From positions 3,296,001 to 3,360,000 of the forward strand of contig OY843751.1 in assembly GCA_963693055.1 (NCBI GenBank): a stretch of DNA of 64,000 bases, written 5' to 3'. Both the position numbers and the translations under genes were made by a program. Below, one piece after another: positions 19,667 to 37,062 of the stretch. Position 1 is the stretch's first letter; the number at the start of each line of letters is the position of its first letter. Below the pieces are notes generated by a model that was not told the DNA's origin, made no database searches, and saw nothing but the letters and a program-made list of their open reading frames with translations. Origin of the DNA: a bacterium. Its GTDB lineage: Bacteria > Zhuqueibacterota > Zhuqueibacteria > Residuimicrobiales > Krinioviventaceae.

Positions 19667-19718
19667 ATTTAACCTCCATTGTGCGTATTATAACGTTAAA
19701 CTCAACATACATTATTTG

Positions 19719-21308
19719 TTAAGCCACAGCTTCCGGTTGTTTTACCAATTTTTCGAATTCAGGGCGGAAATGTTTCAGCGTTCCCAGAATAGGTACAGGA
19801 GCAGCCTGACCTAATCCACAGAACGCACCCTTCATCATGACTACTGCAAGTTCTTCAATCATATCGATGTCTTTGATCTCGCCTTTACCACTGCTCAATT
19901 TTTCAAGACGCTCCAATAAACGGCCTGTTCCTTCACGGCAAAGTGTACATTTACCACAAGATTCATGATTAAAGAATTCTACAAAATTGGTTACCAGATC
20001 AACAATTTCCTGATCTTCATCAACAACCAGTAAAGCACCTGAACCCAAACCTGAGCCAATTTCGCGCAAGTTTTCAACTGCCAATGGCAGGTCCAGATGT
20101 TCGGAGGTTAAAATACCACCAGTAGTTCCACCCATTTGGGCGAGTTTAAAGCCTTTACCATTGGGAATGCCCTGACCGATATCATAAATAATTTCTCGCA
20201 GGGTAATGCCCATGGGAACTTCAATAAGGCCGGGATTATTAATATTGCCAACCATGGTAAATACCTTAGTGCCCGGGCTTTTTTCGGTGCCCAGTGACTT
20301 GTACCACTCGGCGCCTTTTAAAACAATCTGAGGAATATTAGCAAGTGTTTCCACGTTATTTACGATTGTCGGTTTTCCCCACAGACCTTCGGAAGGTGGA
20401 AACGGTGGTTTATCACGTGGTTCTCCGCGTTTTCCTTCAATGGATTCTATCAATGCGGTCTCCTCACCACAGATATAAGCGCCGGCCCCTTCACGAATTT
20501 CAAGATCAAATGAAAAATCTGTACCAAACAGATTATCACCCAGTAATCCGTTTTCTTTAGCCTGATCGATAGCGCGCTGCATCCGATCGATGGACATGCG
20601 GTATTCACCACGAATATAAACATAACCTTTGGTTGCACCCACTGCAAAACCTGCAAGTGCCATTCCCTCAATAACTGCATGTGGATCGCCTTCAAGGATC
20701 AGACGGTCTTTAAATGTACCCGGCTCACCTTCGTCAGCATTACATACAATGTATTTTTGCTCAGCGGTTTCTTTGGCAGCAAAATCCCATTTCAAGCCAG
20801 TTGGGAAAAATGCACCACCACGTCCCTGCAGGCCGGATTCTTTAACGGTACTGCGTACAGCATCGGGGTCCATTTCGGTTAATGCTTTACCAAATGCTTC
20901 ATATCCGTCATGAGCAATGTATTCATCAATGTTATCAGGATCAATAACACCGGCATTTTTCAATACTACCCGTATTTGTTTTCCAAAACGAGGTGCAGGT
21001 ACACCTGCGGTCTCTGTTTCAGGAATATCAGTATATTGTAAACGATCAACTTTACGACCTTTGATCAGGTGTTCAGAGATGATTTCAGAAACATCTTCAA
21101 CCTTGACACCGGCATAATATACCGCGTCAGGGAAAACAACCATAACAACACCTTTATTATAAATTCCCAAACTACCAGTTTCAACAACACGGACTTCATC
21201 GGCAAGCGCTGCCATTTTCAGTTCGCGCTCCAATGCGTCTTTGACAGAACGGGCGCCCTGGGCAATTGTATGTCCATCCATTGCAATAAGTATGTGAATC
21301 CTATGCAT
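19719..21308 (-). CDS. hydB: NuoF-like flavin subunit (HndC/HydB), short form
   Basis: GRGGAFFPTG, CNADEGEPGTFKDR, GAGAYICGEET, ESCGKCTLCREG...CGLG. No C-terminal ferredoxin domain; N-terminal Trx-like domain has no Cys. Confidence 0.92.
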   Translation of the reverse strand: MHRIHILIAMDGHTIAQGARSVKDALERELKMAALADEVRVVETGSLGIYNKGVVMVVFPDAVYYAGVKVEDVSEIISEHLIKGRKVDRLQYTDIPETETAGVPAPRFGKQIRVVLKNAGVIDPDNIDEYIAHDGYEAFGKALTEMDPDAVRSTVKESGLQGRGGAFFPTGLKWDFAAKETAEQKYIVCNADEGEPGTFKDRLILEGDPHAVIEGMALAGFAVGATKGYVYIRGEYRMSIDRMQRAIDQAKENGLLGDNLFGTDFSFDLEIREGAGAYICGEETALIESIEGKRGEPRDKPPFPPSEGLWGKPTIVNNVETLANIPQIVLKGAEWYKSLGTEKSPGTKVFTMVGNINNPGLIEVPMGITLREIIYDIGQGIPNGKGFKLAQMGGTTGGILTSEHLDLPLAVENLREIGSGLGSGALLVVDEDQEIVDLVTNFVEFFNHESCGKCTLCREGTGRLLERLEKLSSGKGEIKDIDMIEELAVVMMKGAFCGLGQAAPVPILGTLKHFRPEFEKLVKQPEAVA

Positions 21309-21783
21309 TTGCCTGTCCTTTCATTTTATAGTCTTTTAATATTGCCACTGCTTTTTCCGGAGTAAGATTACCATAAACCTCATCATTGATCATCATAACC
21401 GGTGCAACCGCACAAAGTCCCAAACAGCTTGTAAATTCCAGAGTAAAAAGATTATCGGGAGTGGTTTCATTCATATCAAGACCCAGATATTCTTTAATTT
21501 TTTCCAGAACATCTTTGGAACCTTTAACATGGCAGGGTGCATTGTTGCAGCAACGTACAATATATTTACCTTTATCTTCTGTATTGAACAGACTATAAAA
21601 AGTAGCTACACCATAAATATCTGAAAGTGGTAATTTGGTAGCTTTTGCAACTTGAGTAAGTACGGGTTCAGAGAGGGAACCATACTCTTTTTGAACATCT
21701 TTTAAAATATAAATAAGTGGTGTTTTTGTGTCAGCATAATTTTTGACAATAACATCCACCTTGGTTAAATCTTGCATTCTCAA
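21301..21783 (-). CDS. hydC: NuoE-like 2Fe-2S subunit (HndA/HydC), copy 1
   Basis: YGVATFYSLF, CNNAPCHVKG, CLGLCAVAP. ATG 21777 fits the GGAGG RBS better. Confidence 0.92.
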   Translation of the reverse strand: MRMQDLTKVDVIVKNYADTKTPLIYILKDVQKEYGSLSEPVLTQVAKATKLPLSDIYGVATFYSLFNTEDKGKYIVRCCNNAPCHVKGSKDVLEKIKEYLGLDMNETTPDNLFTLEFTSCLGLCAVAPVMMINDEVYGNLTPEKAVAILKDYKMKGQANA

Positions 21784-21820
21784 CCTCCATAGATTGATTT
21801 TCCAGCGTTGCGGGTATCGT

Positions 21821-22183
21821 CTAGTTTAAATTAAATACATATTCCGAAACTACAGTATTGTTCACAATATGTTCTGCAATAATTTTACGAGCTATTTCAG
21901 CATTTACTTTACCATATGTAACGGTAGGTTTGTCTGCCTGAGCAATCTGCAGCATGGGTTCATTATCACAGTAACCCAAACAACCTGTTTGTGTAACAAC
22001 AGCGTCTTTGATACCACGCTTTTCAATTTCATCTAAAATCGCTGACATTGTGTCACGTGAACCTGCGGCGATTCCGCATGTTCCCATGGAAACAATAATG
22101 CGATATTTTGCATCGCTTTCCCGTGCAGCCATCTGAGATTTTGCCTTCTCCTTGATAGCACGGAGATCTGCTAATGTTTTCAC
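21821..22183 (-). CDS. HndB-like thioredoxin-fold 2Fe-2S subunit
   Basis: MGTCGIAAG...TGCLGYCDNEP; GTG start after GGAGG. Confidence 0.88.
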   Translation of the reverse strand: MKTLADLRAIKEKAKSQMAARESDAKYRIIVSMGTCGIAAGSRDTMSAILDEIEKRGIKDAVVTQTGCLGYCDNEPMLQIAQADKPTVTYGKVNAEIARKIIAEHIVNNTVVSEYVFNLN

Positions 22184-22220
22184 TGCTTTACCTCCTGTTT
22201 GTTTTGTTTATGTTAAATAC

Positions 22221-22345
22221 GAATTAATTCTCATTCTTTTCCCGTTTCGTGTGAATTAATCCAGTTTACTTTCCCGAACAGTGTAACATTTTACTTTTTT
22301 TTTAGAATTGATTCTCTTTCTTTTCCCTAAAAATTGAATCAATTC
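22221..22345. promoter_or_regulatory. Duplicated operator-like array (four GAATYRATYC boxes)
   Basis: Boxes at 22221, 22253, 22305 and 22336; direct repeat GAATTAATTCTCATTCTTTTCCC / GAATTGATTCTCTTTCTTTTCCC. Confidence 0.55.
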
Positions 22346-22421
22346 CCTTTTATCTTACAGTGTTTATATTCATTTGTTCACTTTTTTTTACCATCTCCCT
22401 TACTATTTATTATTTACATTA

Positions 22422-22985
22422 TTAATCTAATAAAACTTTACTTTTCACTTGAATACGTTTCAATTCAGATTTGATATGTTTTTTTGCCGGAACAACCATA
22501 TCAAAAAAATCACAATCCTGTTCTGCCATTCTTGCCAAAAGCCAGTATGAATCAAAACATAAAAGTCCCTTGTCCGTACGATGAAGGTAGCAAAAATGCA
22601 CATCAACCGCACCCATTACCAGGTTTACAACTGTACCGGCAATATCTCCCAAAGGTGCCAGGTTTAAGCTATTGAGTTTGAAATCAGCGGTAACAGTTGT
22701 GCCTTTACCCAATTTCGATTTCAAAACCATGCGCCCACCGGCTTCATTTGCTGCCTGGTTCCAGAATGGTAATCCCATTCCTACTGAACGTGTGGTTCTT
22801 GAGGTAACAAAGGGATCAATAACTCTGGCCTGAGTAACGTCATCCATACCTCTGCCATTATCACGTATTGTAACCGCGAGCCTGTTTTGTTTTTGAGATT
22901 CATCAATAAACAAAATCACGCGTGAAGCCTCTGCTTCAATGGAATTTGTAACAATATCCAAAATATTTAATGATAATTCACGCAT
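22422..22985 (-). CDS. Stand-alone HATPase_c (kinase-like) protein of [FeFe]-hydrogenase clusters
   Basis: MRELSLNILDIVTNSIEA, IRDNGRGM, DPFVTSRTTRSVGMGLP, GKGTTV. Confidence 0.85.
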   Translation of the reverse strand: MRELSLNILDIVTNSIEAEASRVILFIDESQKQNRLAVTIRDNGRGMDDVTQARVIDPFVTSRTTRSVGMGLPFWNQAANEAGGRMVLKSKLGKGTTVTADFKLNSLNLAPLGDIAGTVVNLVMGAVDVHFCYLHRTDKGLLCFDSYWLLARMAEQDCDFFDMVVPAKKHIKSELKRIQVKSKVLLD

Positions 22986-23747
22986 CTAGCTCATCTCCTC
23001 CGGGAGTTCAAGAGAGGTTTTACGTCCATCTTGCTTTTTGAGTGCTTTACGGATCTCTTCAAAATCCGGTTTTTCGATATAAAACCAGGTATATTTTGAA
23101 CCCAACATACTTATATCGTGGGCATCAGAAGCTGTAATGATACTTTTGGTAGTATTGAGTAAAAAACGATGATTTTTTGAAACATTCTCAAATGGTTGTG
23201 CAATTTCAAGCGCATCGAAAGGCAAGTTGTCGGGAATGAATCCCAAAGAGCGTAACAAACTGTATGATTTCCTATCAATATGCGCAGGATAAATGATACC
23301 ATTCAAATCTACAACCGTACTGGCAACTTTGTAAATATTCAGGCTTACCGGCAGAGCAAACATACGTTTACTTTCCTCAATAATATTTTCCTGAAAATCG
23401 CAAACATATTGTGGACCAAACATGGATGCATCATATTCACCAGGCATCAAATGTTCATATATATAGTTTTGGAAATGCCCGGCAGCATCCAGGTCTGGAA
23501 ATAAACATATAGAGTGCGCATCTTCACGTGTATAGACTTCCATACCAGGAATGACAAAGAGTTTTTTATTTTCAGCGGCCTTAACAACAGCCTGTGTATT
23601 TTCTGCAGAGTTGTGATCCGTAATTGCCAGGATATCCAGTTCATGTTGCAGGGCTGTTTTAACAATATCAACTGGCCCCATTGTCAATTCAGCACAAGGC
23701 GAAAGGACCGTATGAACATGCAAATCCGCTTTGTACCATTGCAGCAT
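22986..23747 (-). CDS. PHP-domain phosphoesterase
   Basis: DLHVHTVLSPC, AITDHNS, PGMEV, PAHIDR, SDAH. Confidence 0.9.
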   Translation of the reverse strand: MLQWYKADLHVHTVLSPCAELTMGPVDIVKTALQHELDILAITDHNSAENTQAVVKAAENKKLFVIPGMEVYTREDAHSICLFPDLDAAGHFQNYIYEHLMPGEYDASMFGPQYVCDFQENIIEESKRMFALPVSLNIYKVASTVVDLNGIIYPAHIDRKSYSLLRSLGFIPDNLPFDALEIAQPFENVSKNHRFLLNTTKSIITASDAHDISMLGSKYTWFYIEKPDFEEIRKALKKQDGRKTSLELPEEMS

Positions 23748-23751
23748 TCAC

Positions 23752-24093
23752 CTATCTCCCCCGTAAACCAAAATCGTAAAGTTGGCCTGCGACATCAAAG
23801 GCAGACAGGGTTGTGCTGAAAACAGGTATATTTTTTTCATTGGCTTTTTCAAGGGCTGAATCGTCAGGAACCAATCCTTCGGGAAAGATAACTCCGGCAA
23901 GAGACTTGAAAAATACAATGGCAATAACGTTTTCATGTGTTTGATTGGTGATCCACAATGACCCTTTTAATGCATTGGCCATTGCATCACTAAGGATATC
24001 AGACAAGTAACCAAAATCTACTTCTTTGTTCAGATTTTGTTCACCGCTGAGAACTTTTAAATCTAACTTTTTTACAATCTCTTGCAACACCAT
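23752..24093 (-). CDS. DRTGG/HPr-kinase-N-like domain protein
   Basis: GYLSDILSDAM...LWITNQTHENVIA...ANEKNIPV; this family is typically found next to the PHP gene in hydrogenase loci. Confidence 0.78.
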   Translation of the reverse strand: MVLQEIVKKLDLKVLSGEQNLNKEVDFGYLSDILSDAMANALKGSLWITNQTHENVIAIVFFKSLAGVIFPEGLVPDDSALEKANEKNIPVFSTTLSAFDVAGQLYDFGLRGR

Positions 24094-24135: not shown

Positions 24136-25614
24136 TTATTCCATTTTTGAAGCCGGCAGGAACACTGAAAAAGTTGTTCCTTTTTCATACTCGCTTTCAA
24201 TTTCGATCTTGCCGGCATATGCATCTACAATTTTTTTAACAATTGTTAGACCCAATCCGGTACCGGTTATTTCTCGGGTGTGTTCATTCTTGGCCCTGAA
24301 AAAATCTTCAAACAAGCGTTCTTTATCTTCAGGACGCATCCCTATTCCGGTATCGGTAACATCAATTCGAATATAATGACCGTTACGACTGCCGTTTATG
24401 GTTATGGAACCGTTATCACGATTGTATTGAATTGCATTGGATATGACTTGAGTAAATAAACGTTGAAGATCTATCTGGTCAGCATCTACAAACAAATGTT
24501 CAGTAACGCTAATACGAACTTCTAGATTGTGTTCCTTGATGTCATTTTTCATGAAATTGAGTCGTTCTGACAATAGCTCTGAAATATCCTGTCTGTTTAT
24601 TTCGCGTCTTACCTTGCCAGCTTCCAGACGGGTGACATTTAGCAAATCATTGATCAGATTGACAAGTGACTTTGTACGATCTAATGATCTCTTTAAATAA
24701 TTCTCATACAAGTCCGGATCATCGCCCAGAGTCTTGTCTACAACCAGCTCAAGATAGCCTTGTACAGCAGACAATGGTGATTTTAATTCATGTGCAGCCA
24801 TATCTACAAATTGAGAGCGCATGATATCAATTTTTTTCAATTCTGAAATATCACGCAAGACAGACACAACGCCCAACAATTCACCCTTGTCTATGATAGG
24901 TGTTGTATTGGCCATTATCACCAGTTTTGCCGGCGGATGTATAATGATCTCTTGCTGTATCGCTTTAACCTGTTCTTTTTTGCTAAAAATCTCTCGCAGC
25001 TGTTTGTTCAACTCGTCTGGCAGAAACTGCCAAACTTTGTCACCAATTTCAATCTTGCTTTCAACGTTTAATAATTTTATAAACCCGGGATTAAAAAGTA
25101 CAACCTGCCCTTCCTGGTTAATAACCATAATACCATCATCCAAAGAATTGATAATGGTGCGCATGCGCGATTGCTCATGAGCAACCTGCAGCAATCTTCT
25201 TTCCTGCTCTTCACGTAATCTTCTGGCTTCTAAAATATACCAGCGACGTTCAAGAGCACGGTTTACCAGGATTTGCAGTTCATCTGGTTCAAAAGGTTTG
25301 GGTATATACTGGTAGGCACCCAGTCGTGTGGTTTCCACAGCAGTTTCAATAGATGCATATGCAGTAACAATCACACAAATGGCTTCGGGATATACCAGCT
25401 TGATCTCACGTAATACCTGCGTGCCCTCCACATCCGGCATACGTAAATCAATAAAGTACAGATCATACTCGTTGGCAATACCCTTTTCAATACCTTCTGT
25501 ACCGTTTGAGGCCGTATCTACATTATGACCGTACAACTCGAGGATGCGTCTAATGCCTTCACGCATCCCCAATTCATCATCTACGACCAGTATTTTACCT
25601 TGTTCAATCCTCAA
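24136..25614 (-). CDS. Cytoplasmic REC-PAS-histidine kinase
   Basis: ILVVDDE...IDLRMP...KP receiver, PAS (LDDGIMVIN), AHELKSPL H-box, DTGIG, GTGLGL. Confidence 0.9.
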   Translation of the reverse strand: MRIEQGKILVVDDELGMREGIRRILELYGHNVDTASNGTEGIEKGIANEYDLYFIDLRMPDVEGTQVLREIKLVYPEAICVIVTAYASIETAVETTRLGAYQYIPKPFEPDELQILVNRALERRWYILEARRLREEQERRLLQVAHEQSRMRTIINSLDDGIMVINQEGQVVLFNPGFIKLLNVESKIEIGDKVWQFLPDELNKQLREIFSKKEQVKAIQQEIIIHPPAKLVIMANTTPIIDKGELLGVVSVLRDISELKKIDIMRSQFVDMAAHELKSPLSAVQGYLELVVDKTLGDDPDLYENYLKRSLDRTKSLVNLINDLLNVTRLEAGKVRREINRQDISELLSERLNFMKNDIKEHNLEVRISVTEHLFVDADQIDLQRLFTQVISNAIQYNRDNGSITINGSRNGHYIRIDVTDTGIGMRPEDKERLFEDFFRAKNEHTREITGTGLGLTIVKKIVDAYAGKIEIESEYEKGTTFSVFLPASKME

Positions 25615-26008
25615 GTTCTTTAAATATCTTTTCGCTTAAATATTGTACCAAATCTCTGGGAGAAATGGGTTTTTCCAAATAATCATCTGCCTTGATCCAG
25701 TTTTTTTCTTCATCTGTATCGGTAGAAAAACGGATACCGGTATCGTGACCGGCTGAAGTCATGATGATTACACGAACGTTTTCAGTATTGGGCTGTTGTT
25801 TGATTCTGTGGCAAAGTACAAAACCAGAATCAAAATGCTCCATTGCAAGGTCAACAACAACAACAGGCGGATTAAATGCTTTGAATTTTTCCAAACCTTC
25901 CACACTGTCATATGCAGTTTCTACAGTATAGCCTTCTTTTTCTAAAACGGGTTTATAAATATTGATCAAATCTGTATCGTCATCAACCATTAAAATCTTT
26001 TTATCCAT
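25604..26008 (-). CDS. Single-domain response regulator
   Basis: ILMVDDD, VVVDLAME, LEKP. Confidence 0.88.
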   Translation of the reverse strand: MDKKILMVDDDTDLINIYKPVLEKEGYTVETAYDSVEGLEKFKAFNPPVVVVDLAMEHFDSGFVLCHRIKQQPNTENVRVIIMTSAGHDTGIRFSTDTDEEKNWIKADDYLEKPISPRDLVQYLSEKIFKELED

Positions 26009-26022
26009 GCGAACATTTTCCT

Positions 26023-26415
26023 TTAATTCTTGGTTTTCAACATTTCAATTACTTTATCATACAACTGTGTATGTGTAACGGGTTTTTCCATAAAGTCATC
26101 TACCGGGTTCCAATTATCATCCGGGCCAATGGTGAGATTAAAATTGTGTTCCTGATTGACACTGGTCATCATCAGGATCAATGTATCGTTAATAGCATCA
26201 TCTTTACGAATCTCACGGGCAACTTCAAAGCCTTCACCCACTTCGGTCATCATGACATCGAGTATTACCAAATCCGGTTTTTCGGATCTAACCAGTTTCA
26301 GTCCATCTGAACCGTTATAGGCCTTGCATACATGAAAACCCTTTGATGTAAAAAAGGCACGGTTCATTTCGACTAGATCAACATCATCATCAATTATTAA
26401 TAATTTATAACTCAT
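26023..26415 (-). CDS. Single-domain response regulator
   Basis: LLIIDDD, ILDVMM, MEKP. Confidence 0.88.
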   Translation of the reverse strand: MSYKLLIIDDDVDLVEMNRAFFTSKGFHVCKAYNGSDGLKLVRSEKPDLVILDVMMTEVGEGFEVAREIRKDDAINDTLILMMTSVNQEHNFNLTIGPDDNWNPVDDFMEKPVTHTQLYDKVIEMLKTKN

Positions 26416-26429
26416 CTTTCCTCTAGAGT

Positions 26430-28442
26430 TTATTGACCTGTTACCGCTTGAACAGTTTCAAGTGCCATTGGTAAATCAATTAAAAAATTGGTTCCATAAC
26501 CGGGTGTGCTCTGCACTTTAATATTACCCTTGTGCATTTTCAAAATTCCATAAGCTATAGGAAGACCTAAACCGGTTCCTTTGCCAATTTGCTTGGTCGT
26601 AAAAAAGGGTGTAAACAGTTTTGCAACATTTTCCTGAGCTATTCCAACTCCAGTGTCTTTAAATTCAAGGCATACACGACTTGCTTCATAATCTGTATTT
26701 GCCGAGATTGTTAACACACCACCATCGGGCATAGCTTCTGCGGCGTTTATTGCAAGATTTAAAAAGACCTGGTAAATCTGATCTCCATCAATATCAACCA
26801 GTGGCAGATTCGGATCAAAATTCACTTTAATCTCTATATTTTGAAATAATTGTTGTTTCTCTATTACAGAAATCATCTTGCCAATTAATTCGGAAAGGTT
26901 ATGCTTTTTCAGCTTTAACTTTCCTTGTCTGGAAAAGTTTAACAATCCGGAAACAATTTTTTGACAGCGTTTTGTCTCTTCCATAATAAACCGCATGTCT
27001 TTGGCCTGAGGATCAGTATCTTCCATTTTTTGCAAAACCAGATGCGCGTAAAGTAAAATGGATCCCAAGGGATTGTTTACTTCGTGAGCCACACCTGCTG
27101 CAAGCTGACCAATGGATGCCAACTTTTCATGCTGGATGAGTTGTTCCTGCGTTTCAGCGAGTTGTTCCAATGAATTTTTCAACTCTTGCTGCATACGCTG
27201 CTGTTTTTCAATAATAAACGGCAAACACATGGCATCTTCTGCAATCCCTTGATAAACAGCAATGGCGTATTCTCTACAACTATCATAACCACAGGATCTG
27301 CAATTGAGCTCGTCAGACGGATCAAATTTTTCAATCTTTTCCAGAATTGAGCGAATCTCTTTGTCCGAGGGTAATGGCATTTTGCATGGTCGTGCTTTAA
27401 ACGTTCTAAACACATCCACATCACGACATTGCTCAAGAGTACTTTTCCATGACATATAATTGGTAGATTGCCGGTGTGATGCTGTATACTGAACAATTTT
27501 TTGTTTTCGTGTAAAATAATTGACCGACTTGTTCATAAAGGGTCCATTTATACACCCTTCACAAAACAACACATCAACCAGACTGGCTTTGATTTCTTGG
27601 TTTTTAAGACAATCAAACAGTTTGAGAATTTGTTGCTTACCTTCGGTCAAAATGACTTCCTTGTTCATAATATCAAGCGGTAAACCAGCGCTGCGCAAAA
27701 AACCTCCGGAAATGGGATACAAACTGCCCAAATACGGATGCGGCGGATCGAAATCCTTCCAAGTACAATTCTCAGGATCAACACCCAGTTTTCTCCAAAG
27801 TTCTTCCAGTTCCTGAAAGGTCAAAACTTCGTCTACTGCATCTTTAACTTCGGCATCTCGTATTTCTGTTTTTTTCGCAGTACAGGGGCCAATAAATACC
27901 GTTTTTACATTGGCACCATATATTTTTTTTACAACCCTGCCCATAGCAATCATGGGTGATACTACCGGGGCAAGGTCGTTAATTAATTCGGGTACATACA
28001 TTTGAATATATGAAAAAATTGCAGGACAAGAGCTTGTTATAAAGGGCCTTTCTTTCTGGTTATTTTTTTCATTAACCAGGTTTAAATAAGCGCGATTTAT
28101 AAGATCAGCGCCAAAGGCCACTTCAACAACATGAGAAAAACCACAAGCGCGTAACGCACCTACCAGCTTGCCGGTTTCCATTTTAGGGTATGCCGCAGGA
28201 AACGATGGCGCCAGCATGGCTACTGTATTCTCTTGCTTGAGTAATTCCAAAGCATTGTCAACTCCATCCAGAACTGCTTTTGCCTTTTGTGTACAAACAG
28301 TAACACAATGACCACAGCTAAGACAGCGTTCTACAATGACTTTGGCTTGCCCGTTTTCAACCTTGATTGCTTTTGCCGGGCATTCCCGAATACAGGAATA
28401 ACAGCGCTTGCATTTTTCTTCTATTGTCCAAACAACTGGCAT
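26430..28442 (-). CDS. Putative sensory [FeFe]-hydrogenase (group C-like) fused to a histidine kinase
   Basis: 2x4Fe-4S, variant H-cluster motifs ITSSCP, GPCTAKKTE, DVLFCEGCING, an extra FeS motif (NCRSCGYDSC...MCLP), coiled coil, GVAHEVNNPL, HATPase (PFFTTK, GTGLGL). Confidence 0.88.
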   Translation of the reverse strand: MPVVWTIEEKCKRCYSCIRECPAKAIKVENGQAKVIVERCLSCGHCVTVCTQKAKAVLDGVDNALELLKQENTVAMLAPSFPAAYPKMETGKLVGALRACGFSHVVEVAFGADLINRAYLNLVNEKNNQKERPFITSSCPAIFSYIQMYVPELINDLAPVVSPMIAMGRVVKKIYGANVKTVFIGPCTAKKTEIRDAEVKDAVDEVLTFQELEELWRKLGVDPENCTWKDFDPPHPYLGSLYPISGGFLRSAGLPLDIMNKEVILTEGKQQILKLFDCLKNQEIKASLVDVLFCEGCINGPFMNKSVNYFTRKQKIVQYTASHRQSTNYMSWKSTLEQCRDVDVFRTFKARPCKMPLPSDKEIRSILEKIEKFDPSDELNCRSCGYDSCREYAIAVYQGIAEDAMCLPFIIEKQQRMQQELKNSLEQLAETQEQLIQHEKLASIGQLAAGVAHEVNNPLGSILLYAHLVLQKMEDTDPQAKDMRFIMEETKRCQKIVSGLLNFSRQGKLKLKKHNLSELIGKMISVIEKQQLFQNIEIKVNFDPNLPLVDIDGDQIYQVFLNLAINAAEAMPDGGVLTISANTDYEASRVCLEFKDTGVGIAQENVAKLFTPFFTTKQIGKGTGLGLPIAYGILKMHKGNIKVQSTPGYGTNFLIDLPMALETVQAVTGQ

Positions 28443-28443
28443 A

Positions 28444-30156
28444 TTATTCTACATCTCTTCTCACATAGTGTGTATGCAAGAGCTCATGGGCCTTATGACT
28501 GTTGGGCTCGCCAAGGAACTCTTTATACAATTTCTGAACTGATTCATTCTGATGTGAACAACGCATGGGCAGTTCTTTATCGATCTTGTAAATAGCCTGC
28601 ATACGCTTTTCAGTTTTTTCAGGATCAGAAGGCAATGGCTGACCACCACCATTAATACAACCACCGGGGCATGCCATAACTTCAATAAAGTGATATGGAG
28701 AAGTTCCTTCCTGCATCTGGTCCAGGAAATGGTTTATGTTTTTCAATCCGTTAATAGCGGCAACTTTAAGTTCAATATCATTAATCGTTACAACAGCTTC
28801 TTTAACACCACTCAAGCCACGGATTGGACGAAAATCGATATCATCCATTTCTTTACCCGTAAGTGTAAAATATGCTGTACGCAAAGCGGCTTCCATAACA
28901 CCACCGGCACTACCAAAAATAACCGCAGCACCCGTTGATTCACCCAATGGATCATCAAAGTGTTCTTCTGCCAGGCGGGTAAAATCAATACCTGCGTTTT
29001 TGATCATTCTTGCAAGTTCGCGTGTGGTAACTACTGCATCAACATCCGGGTATTTATCACCCAGTTCAGGACGTTGAGCTTCAAATTTCTTTGCAGTACA
29101 TGGCATTACAGATACTACAAATATATCTTTGGGATCAATACCCATCTTTTGCGCATAAAAAGATTTTACAAGCGCTCCCTGCATTTCATGTGGTGATTTA
29201 CAGGTTGAGAGATTGCCCAACAGATCGGGATAAAAATGTTCAATATATTTAATCCAACCCGGACTACAAGAAGTAATCATGGGAACAGTACCATTATTGG
29301 TTAAACGACCCAACAATTCAGTTGCTTCTTCCATAATGGTAAGATCAGCACTAAAGTTGGTGTCAAAAACAGTGTCAAAGCCCATTGCGCGAAGTGCTGA
29401 AACCATTTGACCTGTAACAATAGTGCCAACCGGCATCCCAAATTCTTCACCCAGTGCAACACGTACAGCCGGTGCAACTTGAACAACAACATGTTTTTCT
29501 TTATTATTAATGGCATCCCAAACAACTTTTTCCTGGCTCTTTTCTTTCAAAGCACCAACTGGACAGTTAACAATACACTGACCACAGTAAACACAAGGAA
29601 CTGTGTTCAAACTGTTATCAAATGCAGGGGTAACATAAGTCTGGAAACCACGGTTTGCAAAATCAATTGCGCCTACATTTTGTACTTCATGACAAACACG
29701 GATACAGCGACCGCAGAGAATACATTTATCGGGATCACGTTCCATTGATGGACTTGCAACATCCTGTTTGTTTGAACGTTTTTCACCTTCATAGCGCAGG
29801 CTGCGAACACCATATTCCGCAGCAAGGGTCTGTAATTCACAATTTCCATTGCGAACACATTGCAAACAATCAGCCGGGTGGTTGGCAATCAACAACTCGA
29901 TGATGGTTTTTCTTGCACGTCTTACCTTGGGTGAATTGGTTTGCACCTTCATTCCGTCAGCTACCGGAAATGCACAGGAAGGTACAAGATTGCGCTGTCC
30001 TTCTACTTCAACAACACATATACGGCATGAACCGGTTGGGCTAAATCCTTTCAGGTAACACAATGTTGGTATTTTAATACCTTCACGGTCAGCTACGGTA
30101 AGGATCGTTTCACCCGGATTGGCCCAGCACTCTTTATCATTTATTATAATTCGCAT
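28444..30156 (-). CDS. hydA: [FeFe]-hydrogenase group A catalytic subunit, copy 2
   Basis: TSCSPGW, MPCTAKKFE, EVMACPGGCINGGGQP and a full accessory cluster set. Confidence 0.96.
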   Translation of the reverse strand: MRIIINDKECWANPGETILTVADREGIKIPTLCYLKGFSPTGSCRICVVEVEGQRNLVPSCAFPVADGMKVQTNSPKVRRARKTIIELLIANHPADCLQCVRNGNCELQTLAAEYGVRSLRYEGEKRSNKQDVASPSMERDPDKCILCGRCIRVCHEVQNVGAIDFANRGFQTYVTPAFDNSLNTVPCVYCGQCIVNCPVGALKEKSQEKVVWDAINNKEKHVVVQVAPAVRVALGEEFGMPVGTIVTGQMVSALRAMGFDTVFDTNFSADLTIMEEATELLGRLTNNGTVPMITSCSPGWIKYIEHFYPDLLGNLSTCKSPHEMQGALVKSFYAQKMGIDPKDIFVVSVMPCTAKKFEAQRPELGDKYPDVDAVVTTRELARMIKNAGIDFTRLAEEHFDDPLGESTGAAVIFGSAGGVMEAALRTAYFTLTGKEMDDIDFRPIRGLSGVKEAVVTINDIELKVAAINGLKNINHFLDQMQEGTSPYHFIEVMACPGGCINGGGQPLPSDPEKTEKRMQAIYKIDKELPMRCSHQNESVQKLYKEFLGEPNSHKAHELLHTHYVRRDVE

Positions 30157-30171
30157 ATCTTCCTCAGTTTA

Positions 30172-32181
30172 TTATTCCACATAAATGGCATCAAATTTAC
30201 AATTGGCTCTACACTGATCACAGCGTATACATTTATCATCAATAATGTAATGTGCTTTTTTACGTTCGCCCAGAATAGCATTTTCAGGACATTTTCTAGC
30301 ACAAACTGTACAACCGGTACATTTATCTGTATCAATCTTATATGTCAACAGGTCTCTACAAACACCAGCGCGGCATTTACGATCGTACAAGTGTTCTTCG
30401 TATTCTTCACGGAAATAACGTATTGTGCTCAATACGGGGTTCGCGGCAGTTTGTCCCAATCCACACAACGAAGTATTAATGATCACTTCTGACAGACGTT
30501 CAAGGTATACCATACCCTGGAAACGCAGCAGTGAATCTTCGGCAGATTTTTCAGCACGATGGCTTGATGACAAACGTTCCAGAATTTCCAACAACCGCTT
30601 TGTACCCTCACGACAAGGAATACATTTACCACATGATTCAGACTGGATAAAGGTCATAAAGTATTTGGCCAAATCAACCATACAGGTTGTTTCATCCATT
30701 ACCACCAGACCACCGGAACCCATCATGGCGCCAATGCTTTTGAGTGATTCATAATCTACAGGAGTATCGATAACTGAATCCGGTAATGCACCACCAGAAG
30801 GACCACCAATCTGTACAGCCTTGAATTCTTTACCATCAGGAATACCACCACCAATATCAAAAACGATTTCACGCAGTGTAACACCCATGGGAACTTCAAC
30901 CAGACCTACATTTTTCACTTTACCGGAAAGAGCAAAGATCTTGGTACCTTTAGAATTTTCTGTACCAATCTTTGAATACCAGTCTGCACCATTACGCAAG
31001 AGTACCGGTACATTTGCAAAAGTTTCAACGTTATTAATAATGGTTGGTTTACCAAACAATCCTGCATCTGAAGGATATGGTGGTTTAGGACGCGGCATTC
31101 CGCGTTTACCTTCAATTGAATTCAACAATGCGGTTTCTTCACCACAAACAAATGCGCCCGCACCTTTTTTAATTTTCAGGTTAAAGCTAAATCCTGTTCC
31201 CAGAATATTCTCACCCAACAGGCCATAGGCTTTAGCGTCTTTGATCGTTTTTTCAAGTCTAGCAATTGCAAGTGGATATTCAGCACGGCAGTAAACATAA
31301 CCTTCATCTGCACCAATAGCAAAAGCGGCAATAGCCATACCTTCTACCATCAAATGAGGATCACCTTCCATTACCGCACGATCCATAAATGCACCAGGAT
31401 CGCCTTCATCTGCATTACAAACAACATATTTTTTATCGCCTTTTGACTGGGCAGCCAGTTTCCACTTTAAACCTGTTGGAAAACCACCGCCGCCACGACC
31501 ACGAAGTCCGCCGTCTAAAACTTCTTTAACCACTTTTTCGGAATCCATTTGGGTCAAAGCTTTGGTCAAAGCCTGGTAACCACCATTTGAAATATATTGA
31601 TCAATACTTTCCGGATCAATTACACCACAATTGGCTAAAACTACTTTTTTCTGTTTCTTAAAGAATGGAATATCTTCCATTTTATCAACACTTGACCAAT
31701 CACCTGCATGACCATTTTTATCATATACACCCAGTGTTTTTCCTACAATCACTTGTTTATTAATAATGGTCTGTTCCACAATTTCAGGAACATCCTCAAC
31801 TGTAACTTCACAATAACTGATTCTCGGATAATTGGGTAATTTAATATCAACAATAACTTCACGTGCGCAATATCCAACACAACCAGTAGAGATCAGCTTT
31901 GCATTAATATTTTTTTCATTCAATAATGTTTTAAAAGCATCATATATTTTTTGTGCACCATTTGCTAAACCACAGGTACCCATACCCAGCAGGATAACAG
32001 GTTCCTCGTGATTTTCTAAAAGAATTTCATCTTTTAAACTTTTAACTGCCTGCAATTCAGCATCCGAATGGCCATTACTATTGCCATTGGTGCTCAGGCA
32101 TTCTATTAATGATTTCACCGGAAAGTCCTGATCTTTCCATAAATTGGTGAAAAGGTTTTTATATGTATTCATATCAGCCAC
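30172..32181 (-). CDS. hydB: NuoF-like flavin subunit (HydB), full-length bifurcating type
   Basis: N-terminal GMGTCG...GCVGYC domain, DEGDPGAFMDR, GGPSGG, EYEEH...C...C, C-terminal CTGCTVC and CIRCDQC. Probable GTG start 32181 after GAGG (track start 32217). Confidence 0.93.
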   Translation of the reverse strand: MADMNTYKNLFTNLWKDQDFPVKSLIECLSTNGNSNGHSDAELQAVKSLKDEILLENHEEPVILLGMGTCGLANGAQKIYDAFKTLLNEKNINAKLISTGCVGYCAREVIVDIKLPNYPRISYCEVTVEDVPEIVEQTIINKQVIVGKTLGVYDKNGHAGDWSSVDKMEDIPFFKKQKKVVLANCGVIDPESIDQYISNGGYQALTKALTQMDSEKVVKEVLDGGLRGRGGGGFPTGLKWKLAAQSKGDKKYVVCNADEGDPGAFMDRAVMEGDPHLMVEGMAIAAFAIGADEGYVYCRAEYPLAIARLEKTIKDAKAYGLLGENILGTGFSFNLKIKKGAGAFVCGEETALLNSIEGKRGMPRPKPPYPSDAGLFGKPTIINNVETFANVPVLLRNGADWYSKIGTENSKGTKIFALSGKVKNVGLVEVPMGVTLREIVFDIGGGIPDGKEFKAVQIGGPSGGALPDSVIDTPVDYESLKSIGAMMGSGGLVVMDETTCMVDLAKYFMTFIQSESCGKCIPCREGTKRLLEILERLSSSHRAEKSAEDSLLRFQGMVYLERLSEVIINTSLCGLGQTAANPVLSTIRYFREEYEEHLYDRKCRAGVCRDLLTYKIDTDKCTGCTVCARKCPENAILGERKKAHYIIDDKCIRCDQCRANCKFDAIYVE

Positions 32182-32194
32182 AATATCCTCTTTT

Positions 32195-32647
32195 TTATTT
32201 TTGCCGGTATTCTGCAATTAATTTTTGTATTTTTTTAACGGTCAAATGACCATAATATTCATCATTGATTGATATTACCGGGGCTATACTGCATGCGCCA
32301 ATACAAGCAACGGTTTCGATTGAAAATTGTAAATCTTTGGTTGTATCACCAGCTGAAATTTCAAGTTCATTTTCTAATGTTTGTAAAATATCCAAAGAAC
32401 CTTTCACATGACATGCTGTACCACGACAAACGCGAATAATATATTTGCCCAAAGGTTTCAGGCGAAATTGATTATAAAATGTAGCCACACCATAAATCCG
32501 GCTGACAGGCAGCTTGGTATGAGTTGCTACTTTATTCATCTCTTCTTCAGACAAGTATCCCTGAACTTCCTGAATATCCTGTAAAATAGGAATCAGGACT
32601 GATGGATCACCCGGAGGATACTTTTCAAAAATCTGTTGCGTCTCCAT
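32195..32647 (-). CDS. hydC: NuoE-like 2Fe-2S subunit (HydC), copy 2
   Basis: YGVATFYNQF, CRGTACHVKG, CIGACSIAP. Confidence 0.93.
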   Translation of the reverse strand: METQQIFEKYPPGDPSVLIPILQDIQEVQGYLSEEEMNKVATHTKLPVSRIYGVATFYNQFRLKPLGKYIIRVCRGTACHVKGSLDILQTLENELEISAGDTTKDLQFSIETVACIGACSIAPVISINDEYYGHLTVKKIQKLIAEYRQK

Positions 32648-32673: not shown

Positions 32674-34143
32674 TTATTTAATATTTTCTTCTATTACCGG
32701 CAAGACAACTGTAAAAGTGGAACCGTTGACCAGGTCACTGTCTATTTCAATATACCCATTATGGTCTTCAATAATACGTTTGGCAATTGAAAGGCCCAGG
32801 CCTGTACCGGAAATACGTTGAGACACTGCATTCTTGGCACGGTAAAACTCGTCAAAGATCTTGTGTTTATCTTCTTCAGACATGCCAATACCAGTGTCTT
32901 TAACAATAACATTGATTTTATTTTTTTCTACTGTTACCTGTACATGAACACTCTTGTGCTCGGGTGTATATTTTATTGCATTACTAACCAGATTATCAAA
33001 AACTCTGCCCATATCTTCTTCGTTACCACGTATCGCGGGCAATTGATCAGGAATATCGCAAGCAAAGTTTATATCTTTGGCCTTTGCTTCGTTTTTATAA
33101 AACTCACAAGTACCACGAAGCACTGAAGAGATATCAAGAGCAGACATGACCTTTGCTGTTACTTTTTTCTCGGCACGGGTCAGATCCAAAAGATCGTTTA
33201 CCATGGCCAACAGTTCATTTGCCCGATCTCGAGACTTTGTAATATAATCTTTTTCTTTTTCAGGATTCCCTGTGATAACGCCTTCCAAAATCAAATTCAA
33301 ATAACCTTCAATAGCGCCTAAAGGTGCCTTGAGTTCATGAGCAACAAGACTGAGAAAATCTGTTTTCATCTGGTCAATCTTTTTCTCTTCAGAGACATCA
33401 ATTAAAACCGTCACGGTTCCAATCAATGCGCCATTTTCATCAATTACAGGAGTAATATTAGGCTGAAGGACCCTGCCATTACCCAGGTTTACTTCAAATT
33501 TTTCAAGAATTTCACAAGAAGTAACTTTGCTCAATGCATTTGCAATTTTCTTTTCAAGATCAGGATTACTCAACAATCCCAATACATTTTTGCCAAACAC
33601 ATCTCCATCCTTTAAGCGCAGCATTTTAAGAGCCGCAGGATTTATGAGCAAGATCTGCCCTTCTTTATTGGTAGCAATTACACCTTCACTCATGCAATTG
33701 ATAATGGTGTTGGTGCGTGTTTTCTCAATGATATGTTCTGCACGCAGCTTTTCCGCTTCTAACAAAAGTCTGCGTTTTTCGAGCGCGCGTTCAATTTTGG
33801 CTCTGAATTCATCGGGAGTAAAAGGTTTGGCCAAATAATCGTAAGCACCTTTTTTTACAGCATCTACCGCGTTTTCGATGGTTGCATAGCCTGTAATAAC
33901 AATAGGAACAATCTTTTCATCGATCTTGCGAATTTCTTCAAGAAACTGCATACCATCCATACGGGGCATCATCAGGTCAGTGACAACAAGATCATAGTTG
34001 TTGTTGCGGATTTTTTCAAGTCCTTCCATTCCATCTTCAGCAAGGTCAACCTCGTATTTGGAAAGTTCAAGAATCCGTTCGCAACCAATGCGGCTTACTT
34101 CGTCATCATCAACAACAAGAACTTTAATGTTTTCAAGGGTCAT
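32674..34143 (-). CDS. Cytoplasmic REC-PAS-histidine kinase (paralogue of 24136-25614)
   Basis: VLVVDDD...TDLMMP...KP, PAS (MSEGVIATN), AHELKAPL, SNAIKY, GTGLGL. Confidence 0.9.
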   Translation of the reverse strand: MTLENIKVLVVDDDEVSRIGCERILELSKYEVDLAEDGMEGLEKIRNNNYDLVVTDLMMPRMDGMQFLEEIRKIDEKIVPIVITGYATIENAVDAVKKGAYDYLAKPFTPDEFRAKIERALEKRRLLLEAEKLRAEHIIEKTRTNTIINCMSEGVIATNKEGQILLINPAALKMLRLKDGDVFGKNVLGLLSNPDLEKKIANALSKVTSCEILEKFEVNLGNGRVLQPNITPVIDENGALIGTVTVLIDVSEEKKIDQMKTDFLSLVAHELKAPLGAIEGYLNLILEGVITGNPEKEKDYITKSRDRANELLAMVNDLLDLTRAEKKVTAKVMSALDISSVLRGTCEFYKNEAKAKDINFACDIPDQLPAIRGNEEDMGRVFDNLVSNAIKYTPEHKSVHVQVTVEKNKINVIVKDTGIGMSEEDKHKIFDEFYRAKNAVSQRISGTGLGLSIAKRIIEDHNGYIEIDSDLVNGSTFTVVLPVIEENIK

Positions 34144-34538
34144 GCTTGATCCTGACTTAATAATTTCTCAACCCGTTCAATCAATTCAGATGGTTTGAGC
34201 GGTTTAGCTGCAAAATCATCAACTTTCATCCATTCTTTGTCATTTGAAAGTTGAAAGGTAAAGCCTGTTTTTTCCTGGGCAGAAGAAAGCATTAAAATGG
34301 GCATATGCTTCATATTCTCATCTTCCCTTACTGCATATGCAACAGTAAACCCGGCGTCACGTTCTTCCATCATCAAGTCCAGGACCAGCAGGTCATACTG
34401 GTTTTCACGGAGTTTCTTCAATGCATCAGATGACGTATATGCTTCTTCAACCGTATACCCTTTTGATTCCAGAATCGTTTTGTTGATCTCGATAAAATCC
34501 GGATCATCATCTGCCAGTAAAATTTTAATATCTTTCAT
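34140..34538 (-). CDS. Single-domain response regulator
   Basis: ILLADDD, LDLMME, AAKP. Probable start ATG 34538. Confidence 0.88.
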   Translation of the reverse strand: MKDIKILLADDDPDFIEINKTILESKGYTVEEAYTSSDALKKLRENQYDLLVLDLMMEERDAGFTVAYAVREDENMKHMPILMLSSAQEKTGFTFQLSNDKEWMKVDDFAAKPLKPSELIERVEKLLSQDQA

Positions 34539-34572
34539 ATTCTCTCCTGTTTTCAAGAAAACAGACTATTAT

Positions 34573-34944
34573 TTAAATACGGTTTACATCCAGCGCTGAC
34601 TGAATGGCCGTTGTTAAATCATTTATACCAAAAGAGTTCAAATGGTAATAGAAAACTTGTTCTTTACGGATAGCTGTTTCCAGATCTCTGGAATTGGAAC
34701 GAGATTGAACAATAATCCGTGATGCTGGCGAACTCCCTTTTAAAATGCGGAGTGTTTGATTTATTTGAATATCTTCCAATCCCGCATCTATGATAATTAC
34801 ATCAAAATGGTGTTCTTGAGCCTGTTGAATACCTGCAAACGGATCATTAACGATCTTGTAGTTTACTTTTTTAGATTCCAGAAAAAGTTCAAGATCGCGG
34901 TTAGCTTCGTTTACAGATGTTGATATTAACAGACAATTCATCAC
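34573..34944 (-). CDS. Atypical (pseudo)receiver-domain protein
   Basis: Receiver-like pattern (FDVIIID...RIIVQS...VFYY) without the acidic DD pair or the conserved Lys-Pro. Confidence 0.65.
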   Translation of the reverse strand: MMNCLLISTSVNEANRDLELFLESKKVNYKIVNDPFAGIQQAQEHHFDVIIIDAGLEDIQINQTLRILKGSSPASRIIVQSRSNSRDLETAIRKEQVFYYHLNSFGINDLTTAIQSALDVNRI

Positions 34945-34978: not shown

Positions 34979-34994
34979 ATCAATTTGCGTGCCA
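34979..34994 (-). promoter_or_regulatory. Putative sigma54 -24/-12 promoter
   Basis: TGGCACGCAAATTGAT versus consensus TGGCACG-N4-TTGCW (GA instead of GC at -12), 35 bp upstream of the first gene of the island. Confidence 0.7.
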
Positions 34995-35110: not shown

Positions 35111-35131
35111 AGTGTGGAATTTCTCCACACT
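35111..35131. promoter_or_regulatory. Putative enhancer (UAS) palindrome for the adjacent sigma54 activator
   Basis: AGTGTGGA-ATTTC-TCCACACT, about 120 bp upstream of the -24 element; no T-tract. Confidence 0.55.
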
Positions 35132-36648: not shown

Positions 36649-37017
36649 ATGGCAAGTATATTAGTCATAGATGATGAAGAAGAGGTTCGTGATATAATCA
36701 AACAAATCCTTGAACATGCGGGATACACAGTTTATACTGCGGGTGATGGTAATCAGGGAATTAAGACCTATCGTGAAAACCCGACAGATATAGTCATAAC
36801 CGATATCATCATGCCAGACAAGGAAGGTATAGAAACCATAATTGAATTAAAAACCGAATTCCCCGAAGTAAAAATTATTGCTATTTCGGGTGGTGGACGT
36901 GTGGGGCCGATGGATTATCTTAAAATGTCGCAAAAGCTGGGTGCGGTTAAAAGTTTTACCAAGCCCTTTCAACGCCAGGAGCTACTGGACGCAGTGAGTG
37001 AATTATTAGATAACTAG
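36649..37017 (+). CDS. Single-domain response regulator
   Basis: ILVIDDE, TDIIMPDKEG, IAISGGG, FTKP. Confidence 0.9.
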   Translation: MASILVIDDEEEVRDIIKQILEHAGYTVYTAGDGNQGIKTYRENPTDIVITDIIMPDKEGIETIIELKTEFPEVKIIAISGGGRVGPMDYLKMSQKLGAVKSFTKPFQRQELLDAVSELLDN

Positions 37018-37062
37018 GCTTAATTTGCCCACGTTTTTATTCATAACAAAAAGGAGCGAACT

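Follow-up and report, generated by a model that had tools for sequence, protein, structure and literature searches.

Within a 64,000-nucleotide (nt) window of bacterial DNA (positions 3,296,001 to 3,360,000 of contig OY843751.1, assembly GCA_963693055.1, from a member of the family Krinioviventaceae), the gene described here occupies 26430..28442 on the minus strand and encodes a histidine kinase whose N-terminal input is a sensory [FeFe]-hydrogenase-like (HydS-type) module, joined to the kinase without a PAS domain. We propose that this protein, for which no membrane segment is predicted, probably controls its kinase activity by the redox state of the hydrogenase-like module, a state that H2 is predicted to set at the H-cluster. 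The fusion belongs to a known, widespread and catalogued class of putative sensors, and the gene alone does not change that picture. What the gene and its relatives suggest together is advanced more tentatively, as possible rather than probable: the bacterial order concerned keeps an [FeFe]-hydrogenase network without the known maturases, which would mean either a novel bacterial route to the H-cluster or iron-sulphur (FeS) redox sensor kinases that carry only the [4Fe-4S] cubane, and a heptad-locked helix would transmit the signal either way. All coordinates without another label refer to the window, and the features discussed are collected in Table 1.

Domains and conserved motifs of the sensor kinase

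The open reading frame (ORF) runs from an ATG at 28442 to 26430 and encodes 670 amino acids (aa). Homologues were collected in a search that returned 5674 proteins at E<=0.001, plain kinases included, and the 120 listed hits that were examined make up, together with the sensor kinase, the 121 sequences referred to below. The N-terminal ferredoxin-like domain contains two CxxCxxCxxxCP motifs (residues 11-22 and 40-51), and all eight cysteines are conserved in 120-121 of the 121 aligned sequences. The H-domain that follows matches the Pfam family Fe_hyd_lg_C (E 1e-52) and carries the motifs FITSSCPAIF (residues 134-143), GPCTAKKTE (185-193) and DVLFCEGCINGP (290-301), in which the H-cluster ligands C139, C187, C294 and C297 are aligned with the ligand cysteines of solved hydrogenases. 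In this alignment Ser138 stands opposite the first Cys of the TSCCP motif and Cys139 opposite the second, which we take to be the cluster ligand, and the sequence of a C178A variant in the alignment agrees. The residue that is missing at the first Cys corresponds to C299 (CpI numbering), the start of the proton pathway (PMC8163306; this and the other papers cited here are drawn on in part). Across the 121 sequences this proton-relay position is occupied by S, P, A or T and never by Cys. The sensor kinase further departs from solved hydrogenases at Gly185, which replaces the Met of MPC, and at Leu292, which replaces the Met of ExMxC.

The four H-cluster cysteines, Gly185, Leu292, a third motif of the form Cx2C, the Cx2Cx4Cx16C motif of the C-terminal FeS module and the H-box HE[VI]NNPL are kept in 121 of 121 sequences, as are the Lys and Glu of CxxKxxE; an alignment of 62 sequences shows no variation at the Ala-Pro of APS. 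These conserved non-Cys residues presumably line the [2Fe] pocket. Because the H-cluster cysteines and the Cx2C, Cx2Cx4Cx16C and HE[VI]NNPL motifs occur in every sequence compared, such conservation argues that the features of the sensor kinase are not chance. No solved structure of a sensory-type [FeFe] hydrogenase was present among the matches listed by the sequence searches or Foldseek.

The C-terminal FeS module (PF04060) reads C381-x2-C384-x4-C389-x16-C406 and leads into the kinase. In Pfam, HisKA reaches 47.5 bits against a cut-off of 26.9 and HATPase_c 79.9 bits against 26.4; the H-box is HEVNNPL at residues 453-459 with the phospho-accepting His453 invariant in the homologue alignments, and the protein has both the phospho-acceptor His domain and the catalytic HATPase_c of a HisKA-family kinase. 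No membrane segment is predicted in the sensor kinase. The kinase core (residues 420-664) finds AtoS (227.8 bits) and ZraS (190.9 bits) as its top NCBIfam matches, short of orthologue status at the equivalog cut-offs of 646 and 479, respectively, and its nearest solved structure by sequence is the cytoplasmic domain of ZraS (E 6.9e-36, 35% identity). Foldseek divides the protein in the same way: hits to [FeFe] hydrogenases (about 1e-20) cover the N-terminal two thirds, and the C-terminal 230 residues match the ZraS cytoplasmic domain at 35% identity with a TM-score of 0.78 (normalised to ZraS).

A PAS family was absent from the whole protein at E<=0.001 and from residues 300-450 alone even at E<=10 (Pfam), and no PAS protein was found among the listed Foldseek matches. 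In the AlphaFold model (mean confidence, pLDDT, 83) the region between residues 293 and 511 contains no strand except one isolated position, and an unbroken helix spans both the fourth FeS cysteine (C406) and His453. A PAS domain hidden in residues 302-445 was considered and is ruled out by Pfam, AlphaFold and Foldseek. In the sensor kinase 47 residues lead from the fourth FeS cysteine to the phospho-accepting His; this spacing is 40 in 42 and 47 in 79 of the 121 sequences, and 54 in all nine sequences examined of a second, paralogous lineage (lineage B, see below). The three values differ by exactly one heptad and no other value was seen. Because the spacings change in heptad steps and a single helix is predicted, we infer that the FeS module is coupled to the kinase by a rigid coiled coil. 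In PAS-type enzymes a signalling role has been proposed for the C-terminal Cx2Cx4Cx16C cluster (PMC8163306).

A reading made earlier from the letters of the DNA and its ORFs alone (the sequence-only reading) had placed the gene at the same coordinates without stating the strand, which is minus, and had listed 2x[4Fe-4S] motifs, TSSCP, GPCTAKKTE, the shortened third motif, Cx2Cx4C...C and HEVNNPL, all of which are present in the translation. Its statement that the gene begins 1 bp after the stop of the second hydA copy is correct (the hydA2 stop codon lies at 28444-28446 and the sensor-kinase ATG begins at 28442, leaving one base between the genes; the other hydA is at 17927-19666), and its identification of a HydS-type (group C-like) module fused to an NtrB/AtoS/ZraS-like kinase without PAS is upheld by the Pfam, NCBIfam and structure searches.

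The catalytic hydrogenases of the window show a different departure at the first motif. Both HydA copies (28444-30156 and 17927-19666, minus strand) read TSCSPGW vs TSCCP in the solved enzymes, with a Ser at the position aligned with the cluster-ligand Cys, and the same is seen in 12 of 12 HydA copies of the related loci L001-L007. TSCSPGW HydA thus occurs also in L007, whose genome (G004) has HydEFG. A literature search on the TSCSP motif gave unrelated papers only.

Relatives, gene order and candidate partners

All 120 listed homologues have the identical Pfam domain set and no PAS; almost all of them are full-length proteins of 645-726 aa, and a single 507-aa sequence is without HATPase_c. 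Their source names include KSB1, Calditrichia, Bacteroidota, Ignavibacteria, Melioribacteraceae and Chloroflexi. Such proteins appear in the HydDB classification as group C1, "Histidine kinase-linked (putative)" (Table 1 of PMC5037454), and a paper of 2024 describes a histidine-kinase-bearing "BfuT" in BfuABC gene clusters of sub-type V, typed C3 by HydDB (PMC11406978). The role proposed for the kinase-linked type is H2 sensing that regulates hydrogenase genes (PMC5037454, PMC11406978), and reviews state that the sensory role rests mainly on PAS-type enzymes and call it putative (PMC8924675, PMC11216029). The sequence-only reading had likewise held that the characterised sensory enzymes carry PAS and that the kinase-fused ones are genomic predictions, in agreement with PMC8163306, PMC5037454, PMC11406978 and PMC8924675. 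In the consulted parts of PMC5037454 and PMC11406978 we did not find the heptad-quantised linker, the conserved receiver and receiver-kinase module, the two paralogous lineages or the order-wide lack of HydG.

In a tree of H-domains the kinase-fused forms cluster with other sensory types, apart from HydA1 and HydA2 of the window, with modest support at the inner forks. The sensor kinase shows the traits of group C (HydS-like) enzymes, i.e., four ligand cysteines, loss of the relay Cys, both FeS regions and an adjacent group A hydrogenase. The C-terminal PAS that marks the M2f type is lacking; it is therefore not a member of that type and fits the kinase-linked subclass. With HydDB group C1 and BfuT, which likewise pair a sensory-type H-domain with a histidine kinase next to a trimeric hydrogenase of the group A3 type, there is no difference of kind. 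Compared with the PAS-type (group C/M2f) enzymes, among them TmHydS of Thermotoga maritima, the shared features are 2x[4Fe-4S], loss of the relay Cys, Gly at the Met353 position, the C-terminal Cx2Cx4Cx16C motif and the location in a group A hydrogenase operon (PMC8163306); TmHydS, however, ends in a PAS domain and has no kinase, whereas here the FeS module passes through one helix into a kinase. At the Met497 position the sensor kinase has Leu, TmHydS Ser and TamHydS Leu (PMC8163306), and the third motif is Cx2C in the sensor kinase vs Cx3C in the PAS-type HydS of the same genome. TamHydS of Thermoanaerobacter mathranii (group D/M2e) shares with the sensor kinase the lack of PAS, a C-terminal four-Cys motif, the loss of the relay Cys and a bifurcating hydrogenase as neighbour, but it has no output domain, a separate gene for a histidine kinase-like ATPase adjoins it, and its Met353 position is Ser instead of Gly (PMC8163306). 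The [NiFe] sensors HoxBC/HupUV with the kinases HoxJ/HupT (HydDB group 2b, "histidine kinase-linked") follow the same logic, in which the expression of hydrogenases is controlled by a histidine kinase that receives the H2 signal from a slow hydrogenase (PMC5037454); their metal site and fold are unrelated and the kinase is a separate protein with a PAS-like domain (PMC8163306), in contrast to the single polypeptide without PAS described here. The ZraS/AtoS/NtrB-type kinases share the HExxNPL H-box, and ZraS is the top solved match, but the ZraS/AtoS-type kinases have a wholly different input module, and the sensor kinase, predicted to be soluble, scores far under their equivalog cut-offs.

The sensor-kinase gene lies in a minus-strand run of overlapping or closely spaced genes, with gaps of at most 42 nt except one of 238 bp. 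In the order of transcription the run consists of the NtrC-type activator, a degenerate receiver, a receiver, a REC-PAS-kinase, hydC2-hydB2-hydA2 and the sensor kinase, followed by REC1, REC2, a second REC-PAS-kinase, the DRTGG, PHP and HATPase_c proteins and the 238-bp gap; beyond the gap are a 2Fe-2S protein, hydC1, hydB1 and hydA1, and then a strong terminator-like hairpin (17922-17895). We compared 36 loci of other genomes, 30 of them with a full-length homologue; one group is labelled KSB1, "Cytophagia" or unclassified bacterium, and the other, of 23 loci, is Bacteroidota-type. Wherever upstream sequence was present, hydA stands immediately upstream of the sensor-kinase homologue (29/29 loci), and downstream of it a single receiver (two in the close clade) and then a receiver-kinase follow in 30/30. 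Downstream of the fusion in the Bacteroidota-type loci L018 and L026 are a receiver of 130-132 aa, a REC-HisKA-HATPase protein of 372-374 aa and Rex. In L022 (8410-10227) and L025 (8957-10756) a Cache-domain histidine kinase, whose kinase part is 46-47% identical to that of the sensor kinase, stands in this slot instead, flanked by hydA on one side and by the same receiver, receiver-kinase and Rex genes on the other. Because another input occupies the same slot in these two loci, the hydrogenase module behaves as an exchangeable input domain, with the receiver and receiver-kinase as its constant partners.

The same genome (G000) encodes a second full-length HydS-kinase at 2.48 Mb (G000:C1:2480741-2482813; L037, 8742-10817), 0.84 Mb away, which is 48% identical to the sensor kinase and has a 54-residue linker. 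This paralogue represents lineage B and the sensor kinase lineage A; its neighbours are Fer4_22, NAD-binding and NuoH-like genes, and no regulator gene stands beside it. A survey for HydS-kinases covered this genome and 40 relatives from its order, and 39 of these 41 genomes have one or more copies; in most relatives the lineage-B copy is followed by a receiver, a second receiver and a REC-PAS-kinase of the type that here follows the activator. The receivers of the cluster fall into two classes, one formed by the receiver of the activator and those of both hybrid (REC-PAS) kinases (34-45% identity) and the other by REC1, REC2 and RECa (28-39% identity). The kinases do so as well: the HydS-kinases have the H-box HE[VL]NNPL and AtoS/ZraS as best matches, and the hybrid kinases have HELK[SA]PL and PnpS/PhoR as best matches.

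Between the activator gene and the operon lie a -24/-12 element of the sigma-54 type, TGGCACGCAAATTGAT, and a perfect palindrome, GTGTGGA-N5-TCCACAC. L002, L003 and L004 share the pattern TGGCAY-N5-TTGAT between diverging flanks, and the arms of the palindrome are nearly invariant in six loci with a variable spacer; the 17-nt core of the palindrome has no other exact copy in the genome. The genome contains rpoN. Position and conservation are what suggest a sigma-54-like promoter here, with the palindrome as a candidate activator-binding site.

Proposed signalling route and the alternatives

In the route that we propose, H2 at the predicted H-cluster would set the redox state of the hydrogenase-like module, and reduction or oxidation of the C-terminal cluster may shift the coiled coil and so change the balance between autokinase and phosphatase. 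The phosphoryl group would likely pass to NtrC-class receivers, the first candidate being the receiver at the N-terminus of the REC-PAS hybrid kinase that is encoded three genes downstream (24136-25614), and this second kinase may in turn use the lone receivers REC1 and REC2 as targets or phosphate sinks, which would make a two-tier cascade. In this clade the activator at 35130-36449 may be the transcriptional output, acting at the sigma-54-like promoter (34994-34979) that would head the operon including the sensor-kinase gene itself; the way from sensor to activator could be direct, could lead through the hybrid kinases, or there may be none.

Several findings speak against this proposal in one part or another. 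At the input end, the third H-domain motif, CEGC (Cx2C), is one residue shorter than the CPEGC/CPGGC of every solved hydrogenase aligned and shorter than in HydA1, HydA2, the PAS-type HydS, the HydS fused to a methyl-accepting chemotaxis protein (MCP-type HydS) and a 489-aa H-domain protein of the same genome. The maturases were not found either: in this closed 6.5 Mb one-contig genome the NCBIfam models of HydG and HydE have no match at E<=0.001, that of HydF finds GTPase-domain matches only (best 101.7 bits vs a cut-off of 325.55), and tblastn with HydE, HydF and HydG of a same-family relative gave only three weak GTPase matches. Because none of the three was found, no known route leads to an H2-reactive [2Fe] subcluster here. 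In the coupling region, AlphaFold confidence is only 47-58 near residues 431-460, the part of the helix that bears His453. A literature search found no autophosphorylation work on kinase-fused [FeFe] enzymes. At the output end, the phosphotransfer partners are putative, proposed from the order of the genes and the class of their domains, no DNA-binding response regulator was seen in the annotated downstream regions of the Bacteroidota-type loci L018 and L026, the -12 element has GA where the consensus has GC, and matches to the sigma-54 consensus number 32 in the window vs 35.8 expected by chance. The shortened third motif is specific to the kinase-fused clade; the idea that it is a trait of all hydrogenases of this genome was rejected, since HydA1 and HydA2 both read CPGGC.

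The maturase result bears directly on what is sensed. If the H-domain holds the [4Fe-4S] cubane only, the protein would be a redox sensor, its four or five FeS clusters acting as a chain through which the kinase would register how far ferredoxin, NADH or the neighbouring HydABC is reduced. The order-wide survey favours this explanation, with HydG over the cut-off in five of the 41 genomes vs a HydS-kinase in 39 (35 of those 39 have no HydG over the cut-off), and so do the loss of the proton relay and the persistence of PP2C-linked relatives in Bacteroidota-type loci after loss of H-cluster cysteines, which is evidence that the fold can function without an H-cluster. Nevertheless, the four ligand cysteines and the Lys and Glu of CxxKxxE are kept in every one of the 121 sequences and the Ala-Pro of APS is invariant, also in lineages lacking HydG. 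The genome encodes two full hydABC sets, the two kinase-fused sensors, a PAS-type HydS beside a PP2C phosphatase and Rex, and an MCP-fused HydS, and the hydABC sets together with three other H-domain sensors would be hard to explain if none of these proteins were matured. Among the 23 Bacteroidota-type loci that carry this fusion, 17 have a HydG gene about 4 kb downstream (the one that was scored reached 509.6 bits), and [FeFe] hydrogenases active without HydEFG have been reported for archaea and some eukaryotes, for which an alternative pathway was proposed (PMC11216029). We consider a pure redox sensor rather unlikely; because the cluster ligands and the conserved residues near them are strictly kept, H2 sensing is placed somewhat ahead of plain redox sensing for the sensor kinase. 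As to the output, the sequence-only reading had taken the HExxNPL H-box to suit the activator at 35130-36449, which would then be phosphorylated directly by the sensor kinase and turn on the hydrogenase operon through the sigma-54 promoter. The family assignment behind this stands: AtoS and ZraS, the best matches of the kinase, and AtoC and ZraR, those of the activator, are names of kinase-activator pairs, ZraS is also the closest solved structure to the kinase part, and the conserved promoter-like element and palindrome, the presence of rpoN and the loci L007 and L048, in which a HydS-kinase gene directly precedes the activator gene, would suit a direct pair. Co-location of the sensor-kinase and activator genes is not conserved, however. 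An activator lies within 10 kb in five of the 30 loci and in none of the 23 Bacteroidota-type ones (two close relatives have too little upstream sequence), whereas receiver and receiver-kinase follow in all 30, so that lineage A always has receivers and a receiver-kinase of its own. L007 and L048 are the only loci with a HydS-kinase directly before the activator, and both copies belong to lineage B (that of L007 is 52% identical to the paralogue vs 43% to the sensor kinase). The paralogue at 2.48 Mb, with no regulator beside it, is at least an equally good candidate partner of the activator, and the receivers of the hybrid kinases are equally NtrC-like. Direct transfer from sensor kinase to activator is thus possible and less supported than had been assumed, and we are doubtful of it.

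It is also conceivable that the protein serves mainly as a fourth structural subunit of HydABC with a part in electron transfer, its kinase being a side function. The gene starts one base after hydA2, the adjacency is kept in 29 of 29 loci, and such proteins have been named the T subunit of BfuABC sub-types IV and V (PMC11406978). We regard this as very improbable: where the Cache-domain kinase replaces the fusion in L022 and L025, the slot still holds a kinase but no hydrogenase module, so that the kinase is its conserved element, and the paralogue of lineage B stands away from any hydABC in this genome.

To our knowledge, the characterised sensors of the [FeFe] type have a PAS domain at the end and no known partner. 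A sensor and kinase in one polypeptide would offer a direct read-out, autophosphorylation, of how such a sensor passes on its signal, and the heptad-quantised linker is a concrete and mutable hypothesis for the coupling. A genome without detectable HydE, HydF and HydG, in an order mostly without HydG, may also serve as a bacterial test case for the alternative H-cluster maturation proposed for archaea; if the maturase-free reading were true, either bacteria, like the archaea reported in 2024, would reach the H-cluster by a new route, or these sensor kinases would work with the cubane only.

Other features of the cluster and the genome

Table 1. Positions of the sensor kinase, its domains and the surrounding signalling and hydrogenase genes in the window
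Feature	Position	Strand	Remarks
HydS-type sensor histidine kinase, lineage A	26430..28442	-	670 aa; 2x[4Fe-4S], H-domain, Cx2Cx4Cx16C module, long helix, HisKA, HATPase_c
N-terminal ferredoxin-like domain, residues 7-53, two 4-Cys motifs	28285..28424	-	Pfam Fer4 dicluster, alignment
H-domain, residues 72-301	27540..28229	-	Pfam Fe_hyd_lg_C, alignments
C-terminal FeS module PF04060, residues 379-408	27219..27308	-	Pfam, alignment
Single continuous predicted helix, residues 403-471	27030..27236	-	AlphaFold model
Kinase core, HisKA 445-506 and HATPase_c 552-660	26463..27110	-	Pfam, NCBIfam, structure match to ZraS
NtrC-type sigma-54 activator (REC, AAA+, HTH_8)	35130..36449	-	Best family matches AtoC, ZraR
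Palindrome GTGTGGA-N5-TCCACAC, candidate activator-binding site	35112..35130	.	About 128 bp upstream of the -24 element
Sigma-54-type -24/-12 element TGGCACGCAAATTGAT	34979..34994	-	35 nt upstream of the first gene after the activator
Paralogous signalling set ahead of hydC2	32674..34944	-	Degenerate receiver 34573-34944, receiver 34140-34556, REC-PAS-kinase 32674-34143
hydC2-hydB2-hydA2, trimeric group A [FeFe]-hydrogenase set	28444..32647	-	Directly upstream of the sensor kinase
REC1, single-domain receiver	26023..26415	-	14 nt downstream of the sensor kinase
REC2, single-domain receiver	25604..26008	-	Of the type that is the conserved neighbour in 30/30 related loci
Hybrid kinase REC-PAS-HisKA-HATPase_c, H-box HELKSPL	24136..25614	-	NtrC-class N-terminal receiver; position kept 30/30
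DRTGG, PHP, HATPase_c, 2Fe-2S, hydC1, hydB1, hydA1	17927..24093	-	Rest of the cluster

Read by eye, the degenerate receiver upstream of hydC2 (34573-34944, minus strand) seems to have neither the acidic pair at its N-terminus nor the conserved Lys, and its Pfam score of 30.0 bits lies just under the cut-off of 30.2; it is likely a pseudo-receiver and is kept in L001-L004 and L007. Three genes, encoding DRTGG, PHP and stand-alone HATPase_c proteins (22986-24093 and 22422-22985, minus strand), separate the signalling genes from the second hydCBA set and are kept in L001-L007. The 238-bp gap that follows (22183-22422) contains three short inverted repeats of the GAAT..ATTC type and no terminator-like hairpin, and may be an operator region. 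Beside the activator gene, a divergent lone receiver and an Oxidoreduct_C protein (36649-38460, plus strand) form a pair that is kept in L001-L004, and an Oxidoreduct_C oxidoreductase is also found near the activator in L048.

At least seven H-domain proteins are encoded in the genome (in which the window is G000:C1:3296001-3360000). At one locus outside the window (L038, G000:C1:4384000-4400000) a PAS-type HydS of 577 aa, a phosphatase-linked sensory type, occurs with a SpoIIE/PP2C phosphatase, a small 2Fe-2S protein, Rex and the gene of the 489-aa [FeFe] hydrogenase-like protein. At another (L039, 6391-8550; G000:C1:808000-822000) a HydS module is fused to a methyl-accepting chemotaxis signalling domain in a protein of 719 aa, and this chemoreceptor-fused gene adjoins a separate pair of kinase and NtrC-type activator. 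PP2C-linked HydS-like proteins are present in the Bacteroidota-type loci as well, where they are encoded divergently upstream of hydCBA (L018, 3247-5106; equivalents in L013, L015, L028 and L030); these have lost the first Cys of the third motif, and two of them also the Cys of the second motif, leaving degenerate H-cluster sites.

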